Below are positions 1 to 12,860 of a stretch of DNA of 15,311 nt, piece by piece (within the stretch, counting starts at the first letter, position 1; each line of letters starts with the position of its first letter). Position numbers and translations under genes: made by a program. The notes beneath the pieces are model-generated. The model did no database searches. It worked only from the letters and a program-made list of their open reading frames with translations, and had not been told where the DNA came from. Origin of the DNA: Escherichia coli (GTDB lineage: Bacteria; Pseudomonadota; Gammaproteobacteria; Enterobacterales; Enterobacteriaceae); the NCBI RefSeq assembly GCF_003334815.1, contig NZ_QOWO01000056.1, one strand, 5' to 3'.

Positions 1-2
1 AC

Positions 3-1174
<1,172 letters not shown>

Positions 1175-1376
1175 CGAAAGTATCTTAGCGGGCATGAAAA
1201 TGGCAAATAACGGTCAAACATCGTGGCGTTGACATTCTGGCTGGAAGTATCGAGTACACGCTCGTAAGCGGCCCTCACGGCCCGCTAACGCGGAGATACG
1301 CCCCGACTTCGGGTAAACCCTCGTCGGGACCACTCCGACCGCGCACAGAAGCTCTCTCATGGCTGAAAGCGGGTAT

Positions 1377-1590
1377 GGTCTGGCAGGGCTGGGGATGGGT
1401 AAGGTGAAATCTATCAATCCGTACCGGCTTACGCCGGGCTTCGGCGGTTTTACTCCGGTATCACATGTAACCACAGCGTGCCGCCTTACATGCCGCTGAA
1501 GCGGCATTCAGTAGACAGGCTATGCACGACTCGCCAGTCTGGCCTGAACATGATATAAAATGAATATAAATAGACAGAATAGGGTTATTT
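1377..1590 (+). repeat. Copy 1 of a diverged ~200-bp direct repeat (structured leader-like element) upstream of the 294-aa gene
   Basis: Matches 9636-9834 by hand alignment: the first 61 nt have 5 mismatches, starting GGTCTGGCAGGG..GGGTAAGGTGAAA..GTACCGGCTTACGCCGG; a second block (TATCACATG..GTGCCGCCTTACATGCCGCTGAAGCGGCAT) is about 84% identical. Weaker similarity continues to the start codon. Copy 1 carries about 21 extra bp (GCTTCGGCGGTTTTACTCCGG). Confidence 0.7.
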
Positions 1591-2475
1591 ATGGATTTAT
1601 ATCACTTTACAGCAATTCCTATGTTGCATTCCATACTTGCATCTGAAGGCCTGAGAGAAGGATATCTAACGTTGTATGATGGAACAATTTTGTATAATAA
1701 AGTATGGTTAACGACATCTCCATTACCATATGGTCACGGATTATGTAACGGTACTGAAAAATTAAGTGAATCAGAAAAATCATTTATGCGAAGAGTCGGT
1801 AATATATCTGAGTCTACGTCTATAAATGGAACACATAATAAAAAGTTAATAAGGTTAAAAATAGATACTGAATGGATAAAAAAGCAGCCTGGATTTTGCT
1901 CATATAAAAAGCTGATGCGTGACCTTGGACAACCTAAAGCTTATGTTAAGTACGTAGGTGCAATGGGGGTTGAGGGGGCAAGGGGGATGACCGATGAGCA
2001 GATAAGTAAAATTATGCGAAAAGGTAACACAAAAGAAGATACCTGGTATATCTTTAATGGGGTCATCCCACCTTCAAAAATAGTCTCTGTTGAATATATG
2101 GAAACTAAAGATAAATATATACCATATGATTTTGAATTGCATGGAAGGGGATATATAGAAAACTCCGGCATTTATCCGATTTCGAATTTATTATTATCTG
2201 ATCTGAATCATACAATGCGAAATATTACATTTTTACCAGGTTCTGTCATAGCGTTTTGTCATAAAGCAAATTCAGAAGAAAATATTTTATTCAGACATGT
2301 ATTATTCACATGTTCAATCTCCTTGAGAAATTTTTCAGTACTGATAGCAACAGGTGATGAGACATCTTTCTATATTCATCTGGATGTATTAAAAAGTTGG
2401 ACTCAAAAAAACAGTAAAGTACTATGCCAACTTTTTGAAAAAGCACGTGAAAGTTACCACAGATACTATGGTTAG
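1591..2475 (+). CDS. Hypothetical protein, 294 aa, AT-rich, function unknown
   Basis: Long ORF in strongly AT-rich DNA with Lys/Asn/Ile-rich codon usage, unlike the flanking IS and backbone. No motif recognised with certainty. The N-terminal LYHFT..SIL..GL pattern is faintly reminiscent of ART-fold (DarT/DUF4433-like) N-termini, but downstream motifs do not obviously match. Confidence 0.6.
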   Translation: MDLYHFTAIPMLHSILASEGLREGYLTLYDGTILYNKVWLTTSPLPYGHGLCNGTEKLSESEKSFMRRVGNISESTSINGTHNKKLIRLKIDTEWIKKQPGFCSYKKLMRDLGQPKAYVKYVGAMGVEGARGMTDEQISKIMRKGNTKEDTWYIFNGVIPPSKIVSVEYMETKDKYIPYDFELHGRGYIENSGIYPISNLLLSDLNHTMRNITFLPGSVIAFCHKANSEENILFRHVLFTCSISLRNFSVLIATGDETSFYIHLDVLKSWTQKNSKVLCQLFEKARESYHRYYG

Positions 2476-2824
2476 AAACCACTGCGGGGAGAACATCAGT
2501 GGCACAAAACTAGACCGCCCGGAACCGGGACGCTTACTGATGGACAGTCATCGCAATGATATCTTGCTGGTTGAGCAGATAGGGGCTCCGTGGGAATTTC
2601 TGCGATAACACCCGCTAAGCGATTTCTCCCTGACGGAAATCACTTGTTTTTCGTTCAGAGGCAGGCAAGAGGAATATTCATCCCCAAAAACGGCGTTTTC
2701 ATATGCGGAAAACGCTGCCGGATAGTCGAATAGTACGACAAACTGACTTCTGACGTTTTCCGTACATTTCAGATTCAGTAACCCCGAATATTTGGGGTTG
2801 GTATGGCTAACGCCTTGAATTTCA

Positions 2825-2977
2825 ATGAACAATATTTTGTTACCGTGTACTGTCGCAGAAATGCCCACGGAACCCCTACTTGGACAGCATGTACTTTATG
2901 AAGTGAATGATGAGGCCAGTCGTGTCAATATCCTGGCGGTTGTAGGCCAGCGTCAGAATCCCCGATTCATTCTTTGA
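2825..2977 (+). pseudogene. Possible remnant of a RelE/ParE-family toxin (C-terminal half only)
   Basis: A 50-codon ORF ends ..GQHVLYEVNDEASRVNILAVVGQRQNPRFIL*, resembling the RelE/ParE C-terminal core (compare RelE ..GYRLVYQVIDEKVVVFVISVGKRER..). No matching N-terminal half was found in any frame upstream. Confidence 0.3.
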
Positions 2978-3012
2978 GTGTCCGGCTTGGAACTCCATCT
3001 TCAGAGAATCGA

Positions 3013-3678
3013 TCAACGTTCTTTAGCTCCTTCCACTAACAGCCGACCTATCTCAAACACCGCAGCTGACCGTCCCGACTTCACCGCTTCGGCTTTCTGT
3101 CCCTCAACAAACCAGTTATTACCGTCCGTTCGGACCAACTCAAACATCCATGACATATCGTAAACGTGTTCCGGGATCAGCGACCCTTCTCCGGCCAGAA
3201 TACCCGCCGTTATGGAGTGGTTGCCCCCGTGCACAAAGCCAATACGCCAGGGCAACCACAGGTCAACATAGTGGTTGTTTTTATCTTGCTTCCACGGCTT
3301 CCCCTTATGGGTTCCAATGCGTGAAACGTTATCGATATAGCGTGGTAGGCTCCAAGGCCACGGCAGCACTATGTCGCTTGCCAGCGACAACGGATAATCA
3401 GCGCCGTTCATCTCACACTCTTTCATCTTTTCGTAAGATTGTATTTGGGTAAGTCCCTTAAAGAAGAACTCCTGCGGGGTCATATCCGGGCGGGCATCTG
3501 TTCCCTCCTCAGCTACCGCCAGCAAGAAATCACTCTGTACTGGCCGCACGATAGCGCGAATGAGATCTGGTAGCGCCTTAACGGGTAGTTTCTCTGCCAC
3601 AGAAAGCAGATGATTGAAGCGTTTTTTTTCATTGGCTATAGTTGCTTTATCTTTCTTGTTTCGGTTCCAGAACATCAC
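3013..3678 (-). CDS. Hypothetical protein, 221 aa, function unknown
   Basis: ORF with a strong upstream Shine-Dalgarno (TAAGGAGGG about 9 nt before the GTG/ATG start); Trp-rich segment PWPWSLP..DLWLPWRIGFVHGGNHS; no family recognised. Convergent with the 294-aa gene. Confidence 0.6.
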   Translation of the reverse strand: MMFWNRNKKDKATIANEKKRFNHLLSVAEKLPVKALPDLIRAIVRPVQSDFLLAVAEEGTDARPDMTPQEFFFKGLTQIQSYEKMKECEMNGADYPLSLASDIVLPWPWSLPRYIDNVSRIGTHKGKPWKQDKNNHYVDLWLPWRIGFVHGGNHSITAGILAGEGSLIPEHVYDMSWMFELVRTDGNNWFVEGQKAEAVKSGRSAAVFEIGRLLVEGAKER

Positions 3679-4247
3679 TGTCTGTAGCCCTCCTTATCGT
3701 GATCAGGATGATGGTTTTCATTCTAATGGTGTAGTAGTTTCACGTCACGCGCACGTGCATATTCTTCGAAAGCTTCGGCGTTAGCCGGTCAACCAGGGGT
3801 TTGAGGCCCAACCGTACGAGATCGTACGCTAAGTTCATTTTTTGAGCAGAAGAGGTGAGTAAAGAAAACGAGGGTTTTGTTTACTCTTCCCGTCAATGCC
3901 AGTAGCCATGCGGTTTCAGGGACTTTCAGTGTTAATAAACTCGGTAATCAAATCAACGTAAACCTGCCTAACAACGCCACGACTTTATTGACTTAAAATC
4001 ATATAGTTAGCTTCTTAGCGTACGTTTCCGCTCCATTGGGCTTCAAACCCCACACCCAATGACATGAGAAAAGCTGGATCTGATTCTCAAAATGCTGGGA
4101 TACCCATCGAGATGGAGAACTCAGTCAATGTTCCATTCTTTCTGAAATATGTGTGGGGACACTGATCTGTCGGGAGCCGGATGCGGTAGTTCCGCAGGTC
4201 CGGTTCTGAGGAGGGGCCCGTCCGGGCAACCGGCGGGTCTACTCACC

Positions 4248-4811
4248 TCATCCCCCTACAACCACTCCCATTCGTTTAAGTATTTTTAAACCTGCTTCCT
4301 GTGGTATCTTTATAGATAAGATCCTGTTTATCTCAGGATTTATATCGAGACCTTCTGTCATTGAAAAATCACAGTGAGACAAATCAGAATGTCTGAACTC
4401 TGTATTATTAAACTCCGAACCAGTAAAATCAGATTTACGAAGGTCTGTTTCCTCAAATAAACAATCACGGAAGCGACAGGATAAAAAAATAGATTTCTGT
4501 AACCGTAAACTAATAAAATCAACAAATCTCAAATCACAATTTACAAGAGAAAAAGTACAGGGAAACATAATGTCTGCTGCATTTACTCCTTGTAATAAAC
4601 AATCTTTGAATTCACAGTCAATAAGTTTAAAAAAATTAAGTTTTAAATTCTTTATTGAGCAGTTTACGAAGCGACATTTTTCGAACTCACAATCGCGAAA
4701 GTTAAAGTTGTCAAGCTGTATTCGTTCAAATATACAATTGTAATAATTTACACCTGATAATTCACTTTCACTGAGGTGTCGTTTTGTGATTCTTTTTTCT
4801 ATTATATCCAT
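4248..4811 (-). CDS. mcbG: Microcin B17 immunity protein McbG (pentapeptide-repeat, Qnr-like gyrase protection), 187 aa
   Basis: Last gene of the mcb operon by position; length matches McbG; pentapeptide-repeat character visible (CIFERIQLDNFNFRDCEFEKCRFVNCSIKNLKLNFFKLIDCEFKDC..). Confidence 0.92.
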   Translation of the reverse strand: MDIIEKRITKRHLSESELSGVNYYNCIFERIQLDNFNFRDCEFEKCRFVNCSIKNLKLNFFKLIDCEFKDCLLQGVNAADIMFPCTFSLVNCDLRFVDFISLRLQKSIFLSCRFRDCLFEETDLRKSDFTGSEFNNTEFRHSDLSHCDFSMTEGLDINPEINRILSIKIPQEAGLKILKRMGVVVGG

Positions 4812-4814
4812 GTG

Positions 4815-5546
4815 TCAGTCTCCTGTTCCCATAACTTCTTTAATAAATGCCTTTTCTGGAGTTGTTTCATTATTGGATTGAATAAAATCACTCATATCAG
4901 AATAACGATTTATACTATTTTTTGAAAGCATATAGAAGGGGATTTTATCTCTTGTTAATTCATCAAAAATATGAGTTGAGAAAAATACCGTTTTCCCGTC
5001 AGCGGTGATCTTATTTATCAGTTCCCATAACATCATTCTGTACTGAATATCAATGCCTACAGTTGGTTCATCCAGTAAAAATAAACGGGCATTTTTGCAA
5101 AGCGTTAGCATCAAAGATATGATAAGCCAACGCTTCTCTCCATAACTTACCGTGTAAGTCCTTTTACGTCTTATTTTATCATAGCGAATGAAAAAATTAT
5201 CATTCCATTTATGATTAAGCTCTGTCCATGCCTGTTTTTTAGTTAACTTATTGAAGCAGCAAATCAAATCAAGAACCTCCTCATTCCTTAGTGTACCTGA
5301 AAGATTTATGACTTGAGGTAGACTTACTAATTCTCCACCAGAGAAATTTCGCTTGAGGGTCCCTTCATAATTACTGACTCCGCCCCTGATAAGGTTAAAA
5401 AGAGTGGTCTTCCCGGCTCCATTTTCTCCAAGCAGACCTATCAACTCTCCCTGCTCAATCTTAAGCGACAGATTATTGAAAACAGGGGGTAAATTTACTT
5501 TATATGAAAAGCTCAGAGAGTTGATTTCTAAAAGAGGTATGGTCAT
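4815..5546 (-). CDS. mcbF: Microcin B17 export/immunity ABC transporter ATP-binding protein McbF
   Basis: Walker A GENGAGKTT, ABC signature-like FSGGE, Walker B LFLLDEPT; 4-nt overlap with mcbE (ATGA) suggests translational coupling. Confidence 0.92.
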   Translation of the reverse strand: MTIPLLEINSLSFSYKVNLPPVFNNLSLKIEQGELIGLLGENGAGKTTLFNLIRGGVSNYEGTLKRNFSGGELVSLPQVINLSGTLRNEEVLDLICCFNKLTKKQAWTELNHKWNDNFFIRYDKIRRKRTYTVSYGEKRWLIISLMLTLCKNARLFLLDEPTVGIDIQYRMMLWELINKITADGKTVFFSTHIFDELTRDKIPFYMLSKNSINRYSDMSDFIQSNNETTPEKAFIKEVMGTGD

Positions 5547-6268
5547 TGAGAACTCCAGACTGGCTCAGTTTTGAAGGTTAGTGCTGAAATAATACTTATG
5601 ATTAACATTATACTATAGAAAAATATCGTCATCAGAGACAACTCCTGGTCTGACTGGAGTATTGTAGAATAGATGGCGATAGGATTAACCTGATTTATCC
5701 AGTAAACGATCCCCTCATTATATTTTAATGATACAATTCCTGATACCATACAGACAGTTATTAATACAGAATAGATAGTGCTGGCTGTTTGGAATGTGAC
5801 TCTGAACGATGCCATGAAAGTGAGTGAAACCATCATAAATGCATTTATGTATATCGATTTTAAAATAATCATTACTATTTGATAATCTGGACTTGCCTGG
5901 AATCCTGTTAGTACGACTAAAATGAAAAAAAACACATACAAAATAGACATGATAAGTGAGGCTATTAATTGAGAACGAATAAATAATAGTCGACCATCCA
6001 TATTATGCACGAAGGTAGCAATAAAACCACTTTCTCTTCTTCCGACCAGATACAGACAGTAATTAAACAGAACAACAGAAAAAGAAATGTAGCCTACAAA
6101 CCATGATATTTGTTTTCCGAGCCATGCTGTATCACCATAATGAAGTTCAATTTCATTGAAATGAAGGAAAAAGAACAACACTGTAGGTGACATAATTGTC
6201 CATATTAAGCTGAAAGGGGTTCTGATTTGTTCCATCAGAAAAATTATCGCCATTTTTAATGTAACCAT
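5543..6268 (-). CDS. mcbE: Microcin B17 export ABC transporter permease McbE, 241 aa
   Basis: Highly hydrophobic multi-pass membrane protein of the correct length, positioned between mcbD and mcbF. Confidence 0.9.
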   Translation of the reverse strand: MVTLKMAIIFLMEQIRTPFSLIWTIMSPTVLFFFLHFNEIELHYGDTAWLGKQISWFVGYISFSVVLFNYCLYLVGRRESGFIATFVHNMDGRLLFIRSQLIASLIMSILYVFFFILVVLTGFQASPDYQIVMIILKSIYINAFMMVSLTFMASFRVTFQTASTIYSVLITVCMVSGIVSLKYNEGIVYWINQVNPIAIYSTILQSDQELSLMTIFFYSIMLIISIISALTFKTEPVWSSQ

Positions 6269-6277
6269 TTGTTATCC

Positions 6278-7468
6278 TTATGGGAATGGTACCATCTTTG
6301 ATTCTCTGACTTTAATACCGTCCCCGGTATGGTAAATTTTATTATTAATGTTTATTGCACCTGAGTTATTCATATGAAGGAAAAAATCAGGGCTTACTAT
6401 TTTTGTGTACCAGACAAGGCTGTTACTTACTCTTTCCCTGGCATAGTAAACAAAAATATTATCAGAAATTTGTTGAAGATAGTTTAATAAATTTGTGTCT
6501 GACGTAATATTTTCCTCAAGCGTTAACTTGACATCATCAGACAGTAGTACCGTATTTTCACACAAATCCGTAAACGACTCGTACTTGTTGCATGACATAA
6601 AGTGACGCTGGTAACTATCAATAATGTCATCATCAGTATAACCGCCAATAAGAAAGTTGTGCAGGCATATATACGATTGCCACAATTCCACTACGGATTT
6701 ACAAAGTGCTTTTTTCAGACTATTAGCATAGGATAATCCGGTACTGTATTTTATTCGACTGATTTTGTTTTTTGTGCCATACAGGGTTAGTACTGCGTGT
6801 CCAGGAGCTCCGGGCAGGGTGATATCGAAAATCCTGATATCTCCTTCTGACCTGAGAGCCAGTAAAATCTCATCTATATGATTTATGCCTGTTACTATTT
6901 CACTGGATATTTCAGTATTGGCTTTTCCCTGTAACCAGTAAAGAAGGAGGGACTGTCTCTCCATAAATTCACACAAGGAACCTTCTATGGCATCGTTCAA
7001 ACTACCATGAAAGCTACATCCGCATGTATCTCTGTCAGGATAAAATTTCAGATCATCTGCAGCGGTTATATTGTCGAGTGCAATTATGACTGCAGGTATT
7101 TCTTGTTGTTCAAGGCTAAACAGATTAAAGGCTCTGACCGTTTTAAATTTATGGGTTATGATTTCATCGCGGGTCAGTGATGAGATCTGAAAAAATGCTT
7201 CGGTAAAAGCCTTTGCAGCAGATGGAGGCATCATCTCATATAATGTTTTCTGACCACCGGTGACTATCTCATTAAAAAAATGACGGCGTTCAAAATATTC
7301 ACCTATTGCCCCCTGAATTGACTTCAGAGTTTCACCGGCCGCGCTGGCTGGTGTAATACGCTCATAGTCCCATATCTGAGAAAACGTTGGCATATTTCTG
7401 TTCAGTTTTGGACTCATGGCCATTGTGGCCGGCCATGCGGACATAAGGTTACTGTAGACATTTATCAT
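6278..7468 (-). CDS. mcbD: Microcin B17 synthetase YcaO-type cyclodehydratase McbD, 396 aa
   Basis: Position and length match McbD of the mcbABCDEFG operon; start overlaps the mcbC 3' end by 20 nt. Confidence 0.92.
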   Translation of the reverse strand: MINVYSNLMSAWPATMAMSPKLNRNMPTFSQIWDYERITPASAAGETLKSIQGAIGEYFERRHFFNEIVTGGQKTLYEMMPPSAAKAFTEAFFQISSLTRDEIITHKFKTVRAFNLFSLEQQEIPAVIIALDNITAADDLKFYPDRDTCGCSFHGSLNDAIEGSLCEFMERQSLLLYWLQGKANTEISSEIVTGINHIDEILLALRSEGDIRIFDITLPGAPGHAVLTLYGTKNKISRIKYSTGLSYANSLKKALCKSVVELWQSYICLHNFLIGGYTDDDIIDSYQRHFMSCNKYESFTDLCENTVLLSDDVKLTLEENITSDTNLLNYLQQISDNIFVYYARERVSNSLVWYTKIVSPDFFLHMNNSGAININNKIYHTGDGIKVRESKMVPFP

Positions 7469-8267
7469 CGTTTACATCTCCAAAAAACTGAACGATCAGT
7501 GGCGCTACGGTCCTCTGATCCAGATTCATTGTTTTTGCTACGTATGAATCGGTATATCCCGCCCATACCCGGTTTTTCAGTCCTATTTGATCTGCAACCA
7601 ATACTGCGTTCTGATACATCGAACCTGTTTCCATTAAGGCCATCCGGTATCCTCTGTAGCGATATTTGAACAAAGCTTTTTCAAAAATAATGCAATAGAC
7701 GAGAGCAAAATGGGGTTTACCAAGACGTTCCGAATCCCCACCGGACAGGCTTCGGTAGAGTGACTGAGTATTACATGTAGCAACAGGTTCCAGTGCCTGA
7801 CTTAGCGGCAGGTAGTGATAAACATTAGTTCCTGCCTGCCAGTTTTCTGTATTTTCAGATAATCTGCATAAAAAAACTTCAATCGGGTACAATGCCCCCC
7901 CAGAAGGATAAGGTCTTCTTACAGAGCCAGGATCAGGTGAGCTGAATGCATTGACTAATAACTTTTCAATAGTACGAATGGAAAGTTTATTTTTGTCGCA
8001 AAAGTTTATTCCTGATGGGAGCCTTTCACGACTAAAATTATGTGATGAGGATATGTTTATTACGGAGCTGAAACCTGGCCTGAAGAGAACTTCTTTATTT
8101 TCAAATTTCTCCAGATGGGCAAGAGGTACCGCGGACACGAAAGTTCGTTCAGCAAATTCGGGGAGGGAAGCAAAGTTACCTCTGACATGAAAATCTTTAA
8201 CAATGGCCAGAACTTCAGGATCTGTGTAATGCGTTACTTCCACTAAAGAGAGTTCGTGTTTTGACAT
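7449..8267 (-). CDS. mcbC: Microcin B17 synthetase FMN-dependent dehydrogenase McbC, 272 aa
   Basis: Position and length match McbC; immediately follows mcbB with a 1-bp gap. Confidence 0.92.
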   Translation of the reverse strand: MSKHELSLVEVTHYTDPEVLAIVKDFHVRGNFASLPEFAERTFVSAVPLAHLEKFENKEVLFRPGFSSVINISSSHNFSRERLPSGINFCDKNKLSIRTIEKLLVNAFSSPDPGSVRRPYPSGGALYPIEVFLCRLSENTENWQAGTNVYHYLPLSQALEPVATCNTQSLYRSLSGGDSERLGKPHFALVYCIIFEKALFKYRYRGYRMALMETGSMYQNAVLVADQIGLKNRVWAGYTDSYVAKTMNLDQRTVAPLIVQFFGDVNDDKCLQ

Positions 8268-8268
8268 G

Positions 8269-9156
8269 TTATCTCTCCAGACAGCTGCAAGCCTGCCAGT
8301 GAATTACCGGCTCTTTACATAAAATACTGGTGATTAAATCAGCGCTAACAGATGACATAAAGTTATCGACATGACTTTTAACCAGTGAAGTACCTGTCAA
8401 CTCCTGAAGTCGCCGTTTTATTAAATGATAGCTGAATCCTCTTTCTGATTCGCCTAAAGCCAATGCTGGTAGTGTCATTTGGTATTTTTTCAGTAACTGA
8501 AGTAAGTTTGCCCAGGACATTTCGTTACGTCTGAAGCTTTTTTCTTCCCTGCTCAGCCATCTCTCTATATGACAAAAATGGCAGGGAGTACCAAGATCAG
8601 GTGAATATACTCCATCTATCCTGAATGACTCCTTTAGGTAGTAGCTTTGGATGAAGGCAACACCAGGGTTACTTTCAAATTTTGAATAGATTCTTTTTAC
8701 AATGTCTGAATGATAGTTTTCGAGATGTAACCAGATTAGTGTTGAATCGCTCACATTAATATTATTATCTTTTATATCAATGATATGAGAAACAAAAACA
8801 CCATCAGATTTCCATTGTTCCCGGGCATTACTGAAAAGATGTGGAACATCGCTTATTATGACTGAGTTTACCCAGAGAGGTGATGTTTTCGTTTTATTTA
8901 TCACGCCTGTGGTAATAAGAAACTCTTTGCCCTTGTCTTTATCAATAAGCGATTCGTCCAGTAGTTTATCAAGGAGGTATTCAGAAATAATACCCTGTTT
9001 GGATCGTAGGCTTTCGAGTACTTTTTTCATTCCCTCATGTGTAATGTCTACTGAAGAAATGTAGGTAATAAGCAGGGTCTTTGTATTTCTGGAAATTATC
9101 TCAAATGGCAGAATATTGATCATATCTTTTCCTTTTTTAATATCAGGGAGCACCAT
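8269..9156 (-). CDS. mcbB: Microcin B17 synthetase zinc-binding scaffold/cyclodehydratase subunit McbB, 295 aa
   Basis: Position and length match McbB; Cys/His clusters (..PCHFCHIERW.. and C-terminal ..HWQACSC..) are consistent with a zinc tetrad. Confidence 0.92.
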   Translation of the reverse strand: MVLPDIKKGKDMINILPFEIISRNTKTLLITYISSVDITHEGMKKVLESLRSKQGIISEYLLDKLLDESLIDKDKGKEFLITTGVINKTKTSPLWVNSVIISDVPHLFSNAREQWKSDGVFVSHIIDIKDNNINVSDSTLIWLHLENYHSDIVKRIYSKFESNPGVAFIQSYYLKESFRIDGVYSPDLGTPCHFCHIERWLSREEKSFRRNEMSWANLLQLLKKYQMTLPALALGESERGFSYHLIKRRLQELTGTSLVKSHVDNFMSSVSADLITSILCKEPVIHWQACSCLER

Positions 9157-9600: not shown

Positions 9601-9635
9601 GTCAGGATGTCACACTACCCCTTTAAGCCCCCACT

Positions 9636-9834
9636 GGTCTGGCAGGGCCGGGGGTGGGTAAGGTGAAACCTGTCAATCAGTACCGGCTTACGCCGGTATC
9701 ATATGCAACAACTGAGTGCCGCCTTCCATGCCGCTGGTGCGGCATATCCTGGTGACGATATCTGAATTGTTATAGATATGTATATACGTAGTAATGACAA
9801 GAATAGGATAAGTTAAAAATTTACAGGAGATGCA
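9636..9834 (+). repeat. Copy 2 of the diverged ~200-bp direct repeat, upstream of the small membrane protein gene
   Basis: See copy 1. Conserved hairpins CCGGCTTACGCCGG and ATGCCGC-NNNN-GCGGCAT (loop TGAA in copy 1, TGGT in copy 2, stem identical). Confidence 0.7.
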
Positions 9835-12524: not shown

Positions 12525-12860
12525 AAAGATGTCGCCGGGCTCCTCTTTTTACTGCGCCGGCTGACGCGGCGCGGCAGGAACGCTGCCTGTGGTCAGTGTC
12601 CCGCGTCCGGCCGGGCACGGGACGGGCGCTTTTACCGCTCCCGGCTGGCGTCGGTGACAGTGTACGCCAGCTCGTCGCCCTTTTCTGATGAGCGCCCTTC
12701 AAGCCGCTTTCGCGGCATAGCCTTGCCGTCAAAAAGACGACGGCTGCGGTATTCCACGGTCGGCCTGACCCGTTACCGGACGCGGTGAACAGCCCACAGG
12801 CAGCGGGGAACGGGCACCACAGGGGTGCCCTCCCGGTGCCCTCTGTAAGAGAAGGAGCGT
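12525..12860 (+). promoter_or_regulatory. GC-rich, hairpin-dense non-coding region upstream of the methyltransferase; candidate single-strand initiation / ssDNA promoter (Frpo-like) element
   Basis: Numerous inverted repeats (GACGCGG..CCGCGTC, GCTGGCGT-12nt-ACGCCAGC, CGGCA-TAGCCT-TGCCG, GGGCAC-CACAGG-GTGCCC). Its first ~40 bp (AAAAGATGTCGCCGGGCTCC..TTTAC..) recur at 15085. The functional assignment is inference. Confidence 0.35.

Follow-up and report, generated by a model that had tools for sequence, protein, structure and literature searches.

Does the short open reading frame (ORF) found between two genes of unassigned role in an Escherichia coli plasmid mark a lost toxin–antitoxin system and, if so, how was that system lost? 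The DNA analyzed here, called the window throughout (the whole stretch of 15,311 nt), is part of an F-type conjugative plasmid and carries a complete microcin B17 operon (mcbG to mcbB, 4248–9156) together with parM/parR. The 50-codon ORF lies between a 294-aa gene (1591–2475, +) and a 221-aa gene on the opposite strand, and an earlier sequence-only reading had noticed a RelE/ParE-like C-terminal core at its end. We find that the right terminus of a Tn3-derived inverted-repeat miniature element (TIME) is joined precisely to nucleotide 200 of the toxin gene yacB. What follows the joint is very probably a dead stump of that gene, the remainder having been lost through a joint made by a transposase (Table 1).

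Table 1. Features around the yacB joint, in window coordinates (a slash between two numbers or sequences marks a joint, here and in the text).
Feature	Position	Strand	Size	Details
Left arm, F(NCM3722)-like IncFIC backbone	1235–2581	+		99.3% identical to L007 5001–6348
Serine-recombinase (resolvase) pseudogene fragment	2486–2581	+	32 codons	GENISGTKLDRPEPGRLLMDSHRNDILLVEQI; cut by the TIME at 2581/2582
Tn3-derived inverted-repeat miniature element (TIME)	2582–2876		295 bp	Without a transposase ORF
TIME left inverted repeat (IR-L)	2582–2619		38 bp	GGGG-terminal; GGGGCTCCGTGGGAATTTCTGCGATAACACCCGCTAAG
TIME right inverted repeat (IR-R)	2839–2876		38 bp	GGGG-terminal; reverse complement GGGGTTCCGTGGGCATTTCTGCGACAGTACACGGTAAC
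50-codon ORF	2825–2977	+	50 aa	MNNILLPCTVAEMPTEPLLGQHVLYEVNDEASRVNILAVVGQRQNPRFIL; chimera of TIME and yacB
yacB 3′ remnant (ParE/RelE-family toxin)	2877–2977	+	101 nt	nt 200–300 of the 300-nt gene
Native spacer between convergent yacB and yacC	2978–3012		35 nt	Unbroken and unchanged in L001 and L005
yacC (DUF6710 family gene), intact	3013–3678	−	221 aa	100% identical to L001 4137..4802

The toxin part of the ORF was identified by comparison with intact genes. Searching the window by tblastn with the intact toxin placed residues 67–99 at 2876–2974 with 100% identity (E 1.7e-18), so the core seen in the sequence-only reading is that of YacB, a toxin of the ParE_toxin family. In a megablast search of 2400–3100 against PLSDB, the query split cleanly at 2876/2877; the portion 2877–3100 matched hundreds of IncF plasmids at 100% identity and is annotated there as ‘type II toxin-antitoxin system RelE/ParE family toxin’ and ‘DUF6710 family protein’. 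The toxin-side sequence was matched at 99% identity or better by 339 PLSDB records, far above chance. The remnant comprises codon 67 (its last 2 nt) to codon 99 and the stop codon of yacB, and is 100% identical to positions 4001–4101 of NZ_CP024888.1 (L001) and 3444–3544 of pF16EC0052-2 (L005). In the former, identity continues for 741 nt past the toxin part into the conserved neighbor gene (window 2877–3718 against 4001–4842). Comparison with intact loci in related plasmids, as had been proposed, therefore returned an unbroken match of 842 nt.

Against this background, the probability that the RelE/ParE resemblance arose by chance in a spurious ORF is close to nil. The 50-aa ORF alone gave no Pfam or NCBIfam match, even at permissive thresholds, as a chance resemblance would; but 101 nt of a toxin gene at 100% identity, followed by 741 nt into its neighbor and present in hundreds of plasmids, together with the tblastn E value, refute that reading. 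The sequence-only reading would have let an empty profile search stand for chance similarity. The empty search proved to be a false negative instead: so short a fragment does not score by itself, and both its homology and its place in the RelE/ParE family rest on identity to residues 67–99 of intact YacB. The full-length 99-aa protein (L001 and L005) matched the Pfam family PF05016 (ParE_toxin), that of the ParE toxins of parDE systems, essentially end to end, over model positions 1–88 of 89 (E 9.6e-13). Its closest relative of solved structure was Caulobacter ParE1 (PDB 3KXE), a weak match (E 0.049). Of this domain, the remnant represents only the C-terminal third.

The intact locus shows what is missing. 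In NZ_CP024888.1, the annotated RelE/ParE toxin coding sequence (3802..4101) overlaps a 264-nt antitoxin gene that precedes it (3549..3812), and a convergent DUF6710 gene comes next; the antitoxin gene overlaps the toxin start likewise in pF16EC0052-2. Neither residues 1–66 of YacB, in any frame, nor the antitoxin YacA gave a tblastn match at E ≤ 10 in any part of the 15.3-kb window, in agreement with the sequence-only reading, which had found no N-terminal half and no antitoxin upstream. With the antitoxin and the first 199 nt of yacB absent, no yacAB toxin–antitoxin system is left in the window. PADLOC and NCBIfam searches assigned no family to intact YacB, to YacC or to the 294-aa neighbor, and a sub-threshold RelB-antitoxin match to YacA was the only match that these searches gave for proteins of the module. 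On a sister plasmid, NZ_JBXRYY010000004.1 (L006), PGAP labels 3078..3179 (window 2876–2977) ‘RelE/ParE family toxin, incomplete, missing N-terminus’; the yacB remnant is thus an ordinary, presumably non-functional pseudogene, already flagged by routine annotation.

The ORF itself is only in part a piece of toxin gene. Its end is indeed the toxin C terminus, as the sequence-only reading had it, but codons 1–17 (2825–2875), including the ATG, are internal to the TIME and contain no toxin sequence. Codon 18 (CTA) straddles the junction, with its first base derived from the TIME, and keeps the leucine of the original TTA by chance; codons 19–50 are derived from yacB. As its start and 17 codons were supplied by the TIME, the ORF is a fusion artifact and not a shortened gene.

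It is extremely unlikely that 2825–2977 is nevertheless a functional small gene, encoding for example a peptide that binds gyrase or the YacA of a co-resident plasmid. The frame is open from the ATG to the native yacB stop, but a scan of 2400–3100 revealed no promoter-like site, and no Shine–Dalgarno-like or other ribosome-binding motif is visible upstream of the ATG at 2825. Nor is that ATG conserved: in a diverged TIME copy on a Salmonella Rubislaw plasmid (L004), it is a GTG in another frame context. Two thirds of the PF05016 domain are gone, in keeping with the failed profile searches, and the stump, called a pseudogene by PGAP, is deleted entirely in some sister plasmids. A complete ParE domain of about 90–100 aa, with its N-terminal helical hairpin and β-sheet, is absent, as 33 of the 99 residues are left. 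Judged from ParE structures, the retained residues presumably correspond to the last β-strands and the C-terminal tail. What is missing would then be the N-terminal helical hairpin and the first strand, which we take to form the core and the antitoxin interface. The chimeric ORF is accordingly not expected to fold or act, and the likelihood that it is both expressed and active is minimal. It should be neither annotated as a gene nor counted as a toxin–antitoxin system.

The yacB breakpoint coincides, exact to the nucleotide, with the outermost base (2876) of the right repeat of the TIME. Among the inverted repeats of the window, its two terminal repeats rank first, with 30 of 38 positions identical, and they have the form typical of the Tn3 family, with a GGGG tip and ACGnTAAG-like inner ends. 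At 295 bp and with no transposase gene, the element falls within the size range of TIMEs (50–500 bp). Its first 73 nt are 96–97% identical to the repeat end of Tn3-family remnants on pO145 and on the E. coli ML35 chromosome (L009 and L012); in these remnants, a resolvase gene comes after the repeat, and after it a gene for DUF4158, the N-terminal part of Tn3 transposases (IR-tnpR-tnpA/DUF4158). Judged by these sequence features, 2582–2876 is a Tn3-derived TIME. No intact cognate or parent Tn3-family transposase was identified, the relatives found being truncated, and the annotation of the sister plasmid lists no Tn3-family transposase.

Copies of the element occur elsewhere. One in pJNE25-005_2 (L008) is 100% identical and lies between unrelated flanks; another, on a metagenome contig (L010), is 94.7% identical, again with unrelated flanks and with no target duplication. 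The Salmonella Rubislaw copy is 84.5% identical; TTTAG stands on both sides of it as a perfect 5-bp duplication, which is the signature of Tn3-family transposition. In L008, L010 and the sister plasmid L003, the right terminus is conserved and the flanks diverge immediately beyond it. A target duplication was thus seen in one of five TIME contexts (L004), and none in the window, L003, L008 or L010.

Published TIMEs of Enterobacteriaceae likewise have 38-bp repeats of the GGGG...ACGnTAAG type, a length of a few hundred base pairs and no transposase. The element described here also resembles them in having one copy with a 5-bp duplication and duplication-less copies beside rearrangements. Its repeats were compared with those of IS101, IMU, MITESen1 and TIME244, taken from Table S2 of PMC13367494. 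Identity with any of these as the same element was rejected, because only 16–21 of 38 repeat positions are identical and the interiors are unrelated. Unlike the four named TIMEs, the element in the window has a left end that matches a Tn3-family remnant on pO145-type plasmids. Judged against those four, it appears to be unnamed, a by-product of this analysis that is only mildly new. A full-text literature search with its repeat sequence returned only irrelevant matches.

Mobile-element annotation does not cover the TIME in any of six sister plasmid records or in the Salmonella record, and two E. coli genome records carry spurious T6SS-sheath or RelE/ParE calls over it. A minus-strand ORF through the element (2548–2868) was considered as a gene and rejected, as the diverged Salmonella copy has a break and a frameshift in it. 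The same minus-strand frame is open through the whole TIME in three of four copies, and in pJNE25-005_2 (2727–3287) PGAP joins it to a T6SS sheath fragment as one ‘protein’, an annotation artifact.

The sequences on the two sides of the TIME come from different IncF backbones. To the left, the window follows a common F-like backbone, exemplified by plasmid F of strain NCM3722 (L007); this arm holds ori-downstream sequence, the 294-aa gene and the start of a resolvase fragment, and it matches the yacAB-type backbones L001 and L005 at about 95%, only over 1235–1507. The resolvase fragment, annotated by PGAP on the sister plasmid L006 (2688..2783, window 2486–2581) as ‘recombinase family protein, missing N- and C-terminus’, continues in plasmid F of NCM3722 as ...AGATA/GAACAACACG, and the TIME of the window sits at that slash. 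To the right, the window is 99.7% identical to pF16EC0052-2, an IncFII microcin B17 (mcb) plasmid. Replicon typing, which assigned the window-type sister plasmids to IncFIC and pF16EC0052-2 to IncFII, agrees with hybrid arms. The TIME stands in for 670 bp of the yacAB-type backbone (L001 3331–4000), that is, for yacA and 199 nt of yacB. On these alignments, the TIME reads as the seam between two IncF lineages. The suggestion that the module is of mosaic origin is thereby upheld, with an F(NCM3722)-like left arm and an mcb-plasmid right arm. The interval 2476–3012, regarded earlier as a former insertion or decay site, is likewise a site of rearrangement, made up of the resolvase fragment, the TIME, the yacB remnant and the 35-nt spacer. 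Position 1507/1508 was considered as a second breakpoint and rejected; it is contiguous in F(NCM3722)-like plasmids and merely marks where the two backbone types diverge.

In most microcin B17 plasmids, the yacABC module lies between the replication origin and mcbG. The ancestral layout, repA-ori-yacA-yacB-yacC-(256-bp element)-mcbG, is seen in pF16EC0052-2, and the stretch from repA to mcbG is covered to at least 80% by 63 PLSDB records. The window-type arrangement occurs in only two PLSDB records and a further-deleted type in four.

How the missing 670 bp were lost can be narrowed down at the joint. A simple insertion of the TIME into its present place was rejected, as its flanks (AGATA on the left and TACTT on the right) form no 5-bp duplication; with simple insertion excluded, the route of loss has to be deduced from the joints themselves. 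The sequence-only reading spoke of a degraded toxin–antitoxin locus. The locus is indeed a presumably non-functional remnant, yet mutational decay did not make it one: compared with intact yacB alleles, the remnant carries zero substitutions, and its end falls exactly on a transposon terminus, which argues for a clean and probably recent truncation.

Random deletion or slow decay, with the TIME adjoining by coincidence, is therefore very improbable. Toxin–antitoxin loci do decay, as the frameshift in yacB of the Shigella invasion plasmid pINV illustrates (PMC9455713, PMC7354431), but a breakpoint that falls exactly on the terminal base of an inverted repeat effectively refutes coincidence. Further transposon-end joints in related plasmids speak against decay as well. 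The right TIME end that meets yacB in the window abuts 4108/4109 instead in four sister plasmids of PLSDB, among which the junction was read in L003, and on L011, a metagenome contig. Exactly 2877 to 4107 or 4108 is missing there, including the yacB stump and yacC. By its sequence, this type would be a nested deletion from the same TIME end. In the mcb plasmid p14EC033c (L013, NZ_CP024150.1, 5001–5155), the left-repeat end of a related Tn3-family transposon, which over 155 nt matches the pO145 remnant at 98%, abuts yacC at window 3139/3140. There, yacC is truncated 127 nt before its stop and everything beyond is replaced. Across different mcb plasmids, the 1.3 kb of yacB-yacC-mcbG thus contain three distinct end-joints, which point to joints made by a transposase rather than to slow decay.

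We therefore favor loss by a transposase-made joint, as judged from a breakpoint that meets the repeat terminus to the base, the same end at 4108/4109 and the related left repeat at 3139/3140. In the proposed order of events, the TIME would first have interrupted the resolvase pseudogene in an F-like backbone. A Tn3-family transposase would then have joined its right terminus to yacB nt 200 by strand transfer, and yacA and the first 199 nt of yacB would have been lost as a by-product of the joint. Since no intact transposase was seen and none is annotated on the sister plasmid, the enzyme would have had to come in trans. Tn3-family intermolecular events yield cointegrates in which each copy of the element has one donor and one target flank, and intramolecular events yield deletions that begin exactly at the element end (PMC13367494). 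The favored mechanism would accordingly be replicative transposition, either through a cointegrate between the F-like and mcb plasmids that was later trimmed or through an intramolecular ‘adjacent deletion’. It predicts a precursor with the TIME in the resolvase fragment, with the junction GGAACCCC/AGATAGAACAACACG and an AGATA duplication.

Another route, which we consider rather unlikely though worth weighing, is RecA-dependent homologous recombination between two TIME copies, one in the F-like resolvase fragment and one inserted in yacB of an mcb plasmid, by which the two arms were fused. It would differ from the favored route only in the step that removes yacA and the 5′ part of yacB. The arms on either side of the TIME belong to different backbone lineages and the missing target duplication fits a crossover between copies, both as such recombination would have it; the same route has been proposed for MITESen1 structures without direct repeats (PMC13367494). 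It would, however, need a separate insertion for each right-end joint (yacB nt 200 and 4108/4109), and none was found in PLSDB, in complete E. coli genomes or in the metagenome scan. The nested deletion of the L003 type is also explained more economically by one-step intramolecular transposition. Recombination between copies predicts a reciprocal junction, ...GCTTACTT/GGGGCTCCGTGG, and a precursor with the TIME in yacB, in which the 5′ part of yacB would meet the left repeat as GTATTAGCTTACTT/GGGGCTCCGTGG with a TACTT duplication. Blastn searches of PLSDB and of complete E. coli genomes found neither a resolvase fragment interrupted by the TIME with both flanks nor a yacB that was complete apart from a TIME insertion. 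When metagenome contigs were scanned for exact matches to the right repeat, no precursor emerged, only L011 (of the L003 type) and the L010 copy.

Whichever step removed the 5′ part of yacB, toxin and antitoxin went together, so the loss would have been harmless and carried no killing penalty. The sister plasmid retains hok/sok, and the window has its own parM/parR.

This plasmid lineage has lost yacAB, a pair known from other IncF plasmids. The yacAB genes form a toxin–antitoxin pair typically found beside the colicin regions of IncF plasmids (PMC4707298). In pS88, a yacA-yacB-yacC module lies directly after repA1 and before colicin Ia, and yacC is named ‘putative exoribonuclease’ (PMC3438092). 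The window shares the yacB gene of such modules (pS88, ColV/ColBM plasmids and pWR100/pINV), at 100% over the part that remains, and keeps both the yacC/DUF6710 neighbor and the site just downstream of repA/ori. The adjoining bacteriocin operon is that of microcin B17 in the window and of colicin Ia in pS88. Unlike the intact modules, the window has only nt 200–300 of yacB and no yacA. The pINV of Shigella flexneri offers another natural yacAB locus in which toxin function was lost, but by a different event: there, a frameshift inactivated yacB and left yacA as an orphan antitoxin (PMC9455713, PMC7354431), whereas the joint in the window took yacA and two thirds of yacB.

The stump matters little except for annotation. 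A mechanistic point of modest use is that a small, readily missed Tn3-derived miniature element would serve both as the seam of two IncF backbones and as a source of nested deletions beside the microcin B17 operon. Elements of this kind, which are under-annotated, can account for mosaic joints that otherwise look puzzling in plasmids with resistance or bacteriocin genes. It is possible, although somewhat short of probable, that the 295-bp element represents an unnamed TIME family whose ends, together with those of the parent Tn3-family transposon, have been active recently and have repeatedly re-cut the cargo slot that follows the IncF origin. If so, active TIME ends would strip the yacAB addiction module from plasmids and splice IncF backbones of different lineages.

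Several further observations were made in the surrounding sequence. YacB, which belongs by family to the ParE group, adjoins the microcin B17 operon, which includes the gene for the gyrase-protecting immunity protein McbG. Characterized members of the ParE group poison DNA gyrase, and microcin B17 is another gyrase poison. The proximity of the two is probably a coincidence, as yacABC also neighbors colicin Ia in pS88.

At the left end of the window (1–1234), the end of an IS21-family element (istB 374–1174 and the istA C terminus 120–377) abuts the ori-downstream backbone at 1234/1235. The sister plasmids L002, L003 and L006 have no IS21-family end and carry repA/ori at that place. The 294-aa protein encoded on the plus strand had no Pfam, NCBIfam or PADLOC match and is 99% conserved beside the resolvase fragment in many F-like plasmids. 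In plasmid F of NCM3722, its gene has anti-phage neighbors (ppl, a TIR-domain gene and a KAP NTPase gene), and it may be cargo of a defense or variable slot.

A diverged second copy (~75%) of 110–130 nt of the ori-downstream sequence (1235–1507) was found at 9635–9746, just past the mcbA end of the microcin operon. The module of yacABC and mcb genes is therefore bracketed by two copies, which may mark where an old insertion or duplication began and ended.

Between yacC and mcbG lies a second miniature element of 256 bp (3796–4051), with 38-bp inverted repeats GGGGTTTGAGGCCCAACCGTACGAGATCGTACGCTAAG and GGGGTTTGAAGCCCAATGGAGCGGAAACGTACGCTAAG. Its repeats are identical to those of IS101 at 30–34 of 38 positions, its interior is different, and its flanks (AACCA and ACACC) form no 5-bp duplication; mcb plasmids that retain a complete yacAB, such as pF16EC0052-2, carry the 256-bp element as well. 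Between parM and a DNA methylase gene, a 30-nt inverted repeat (12581–12610 and 12776–12805) is 83% complementary, with its two arms 165 nt apart.
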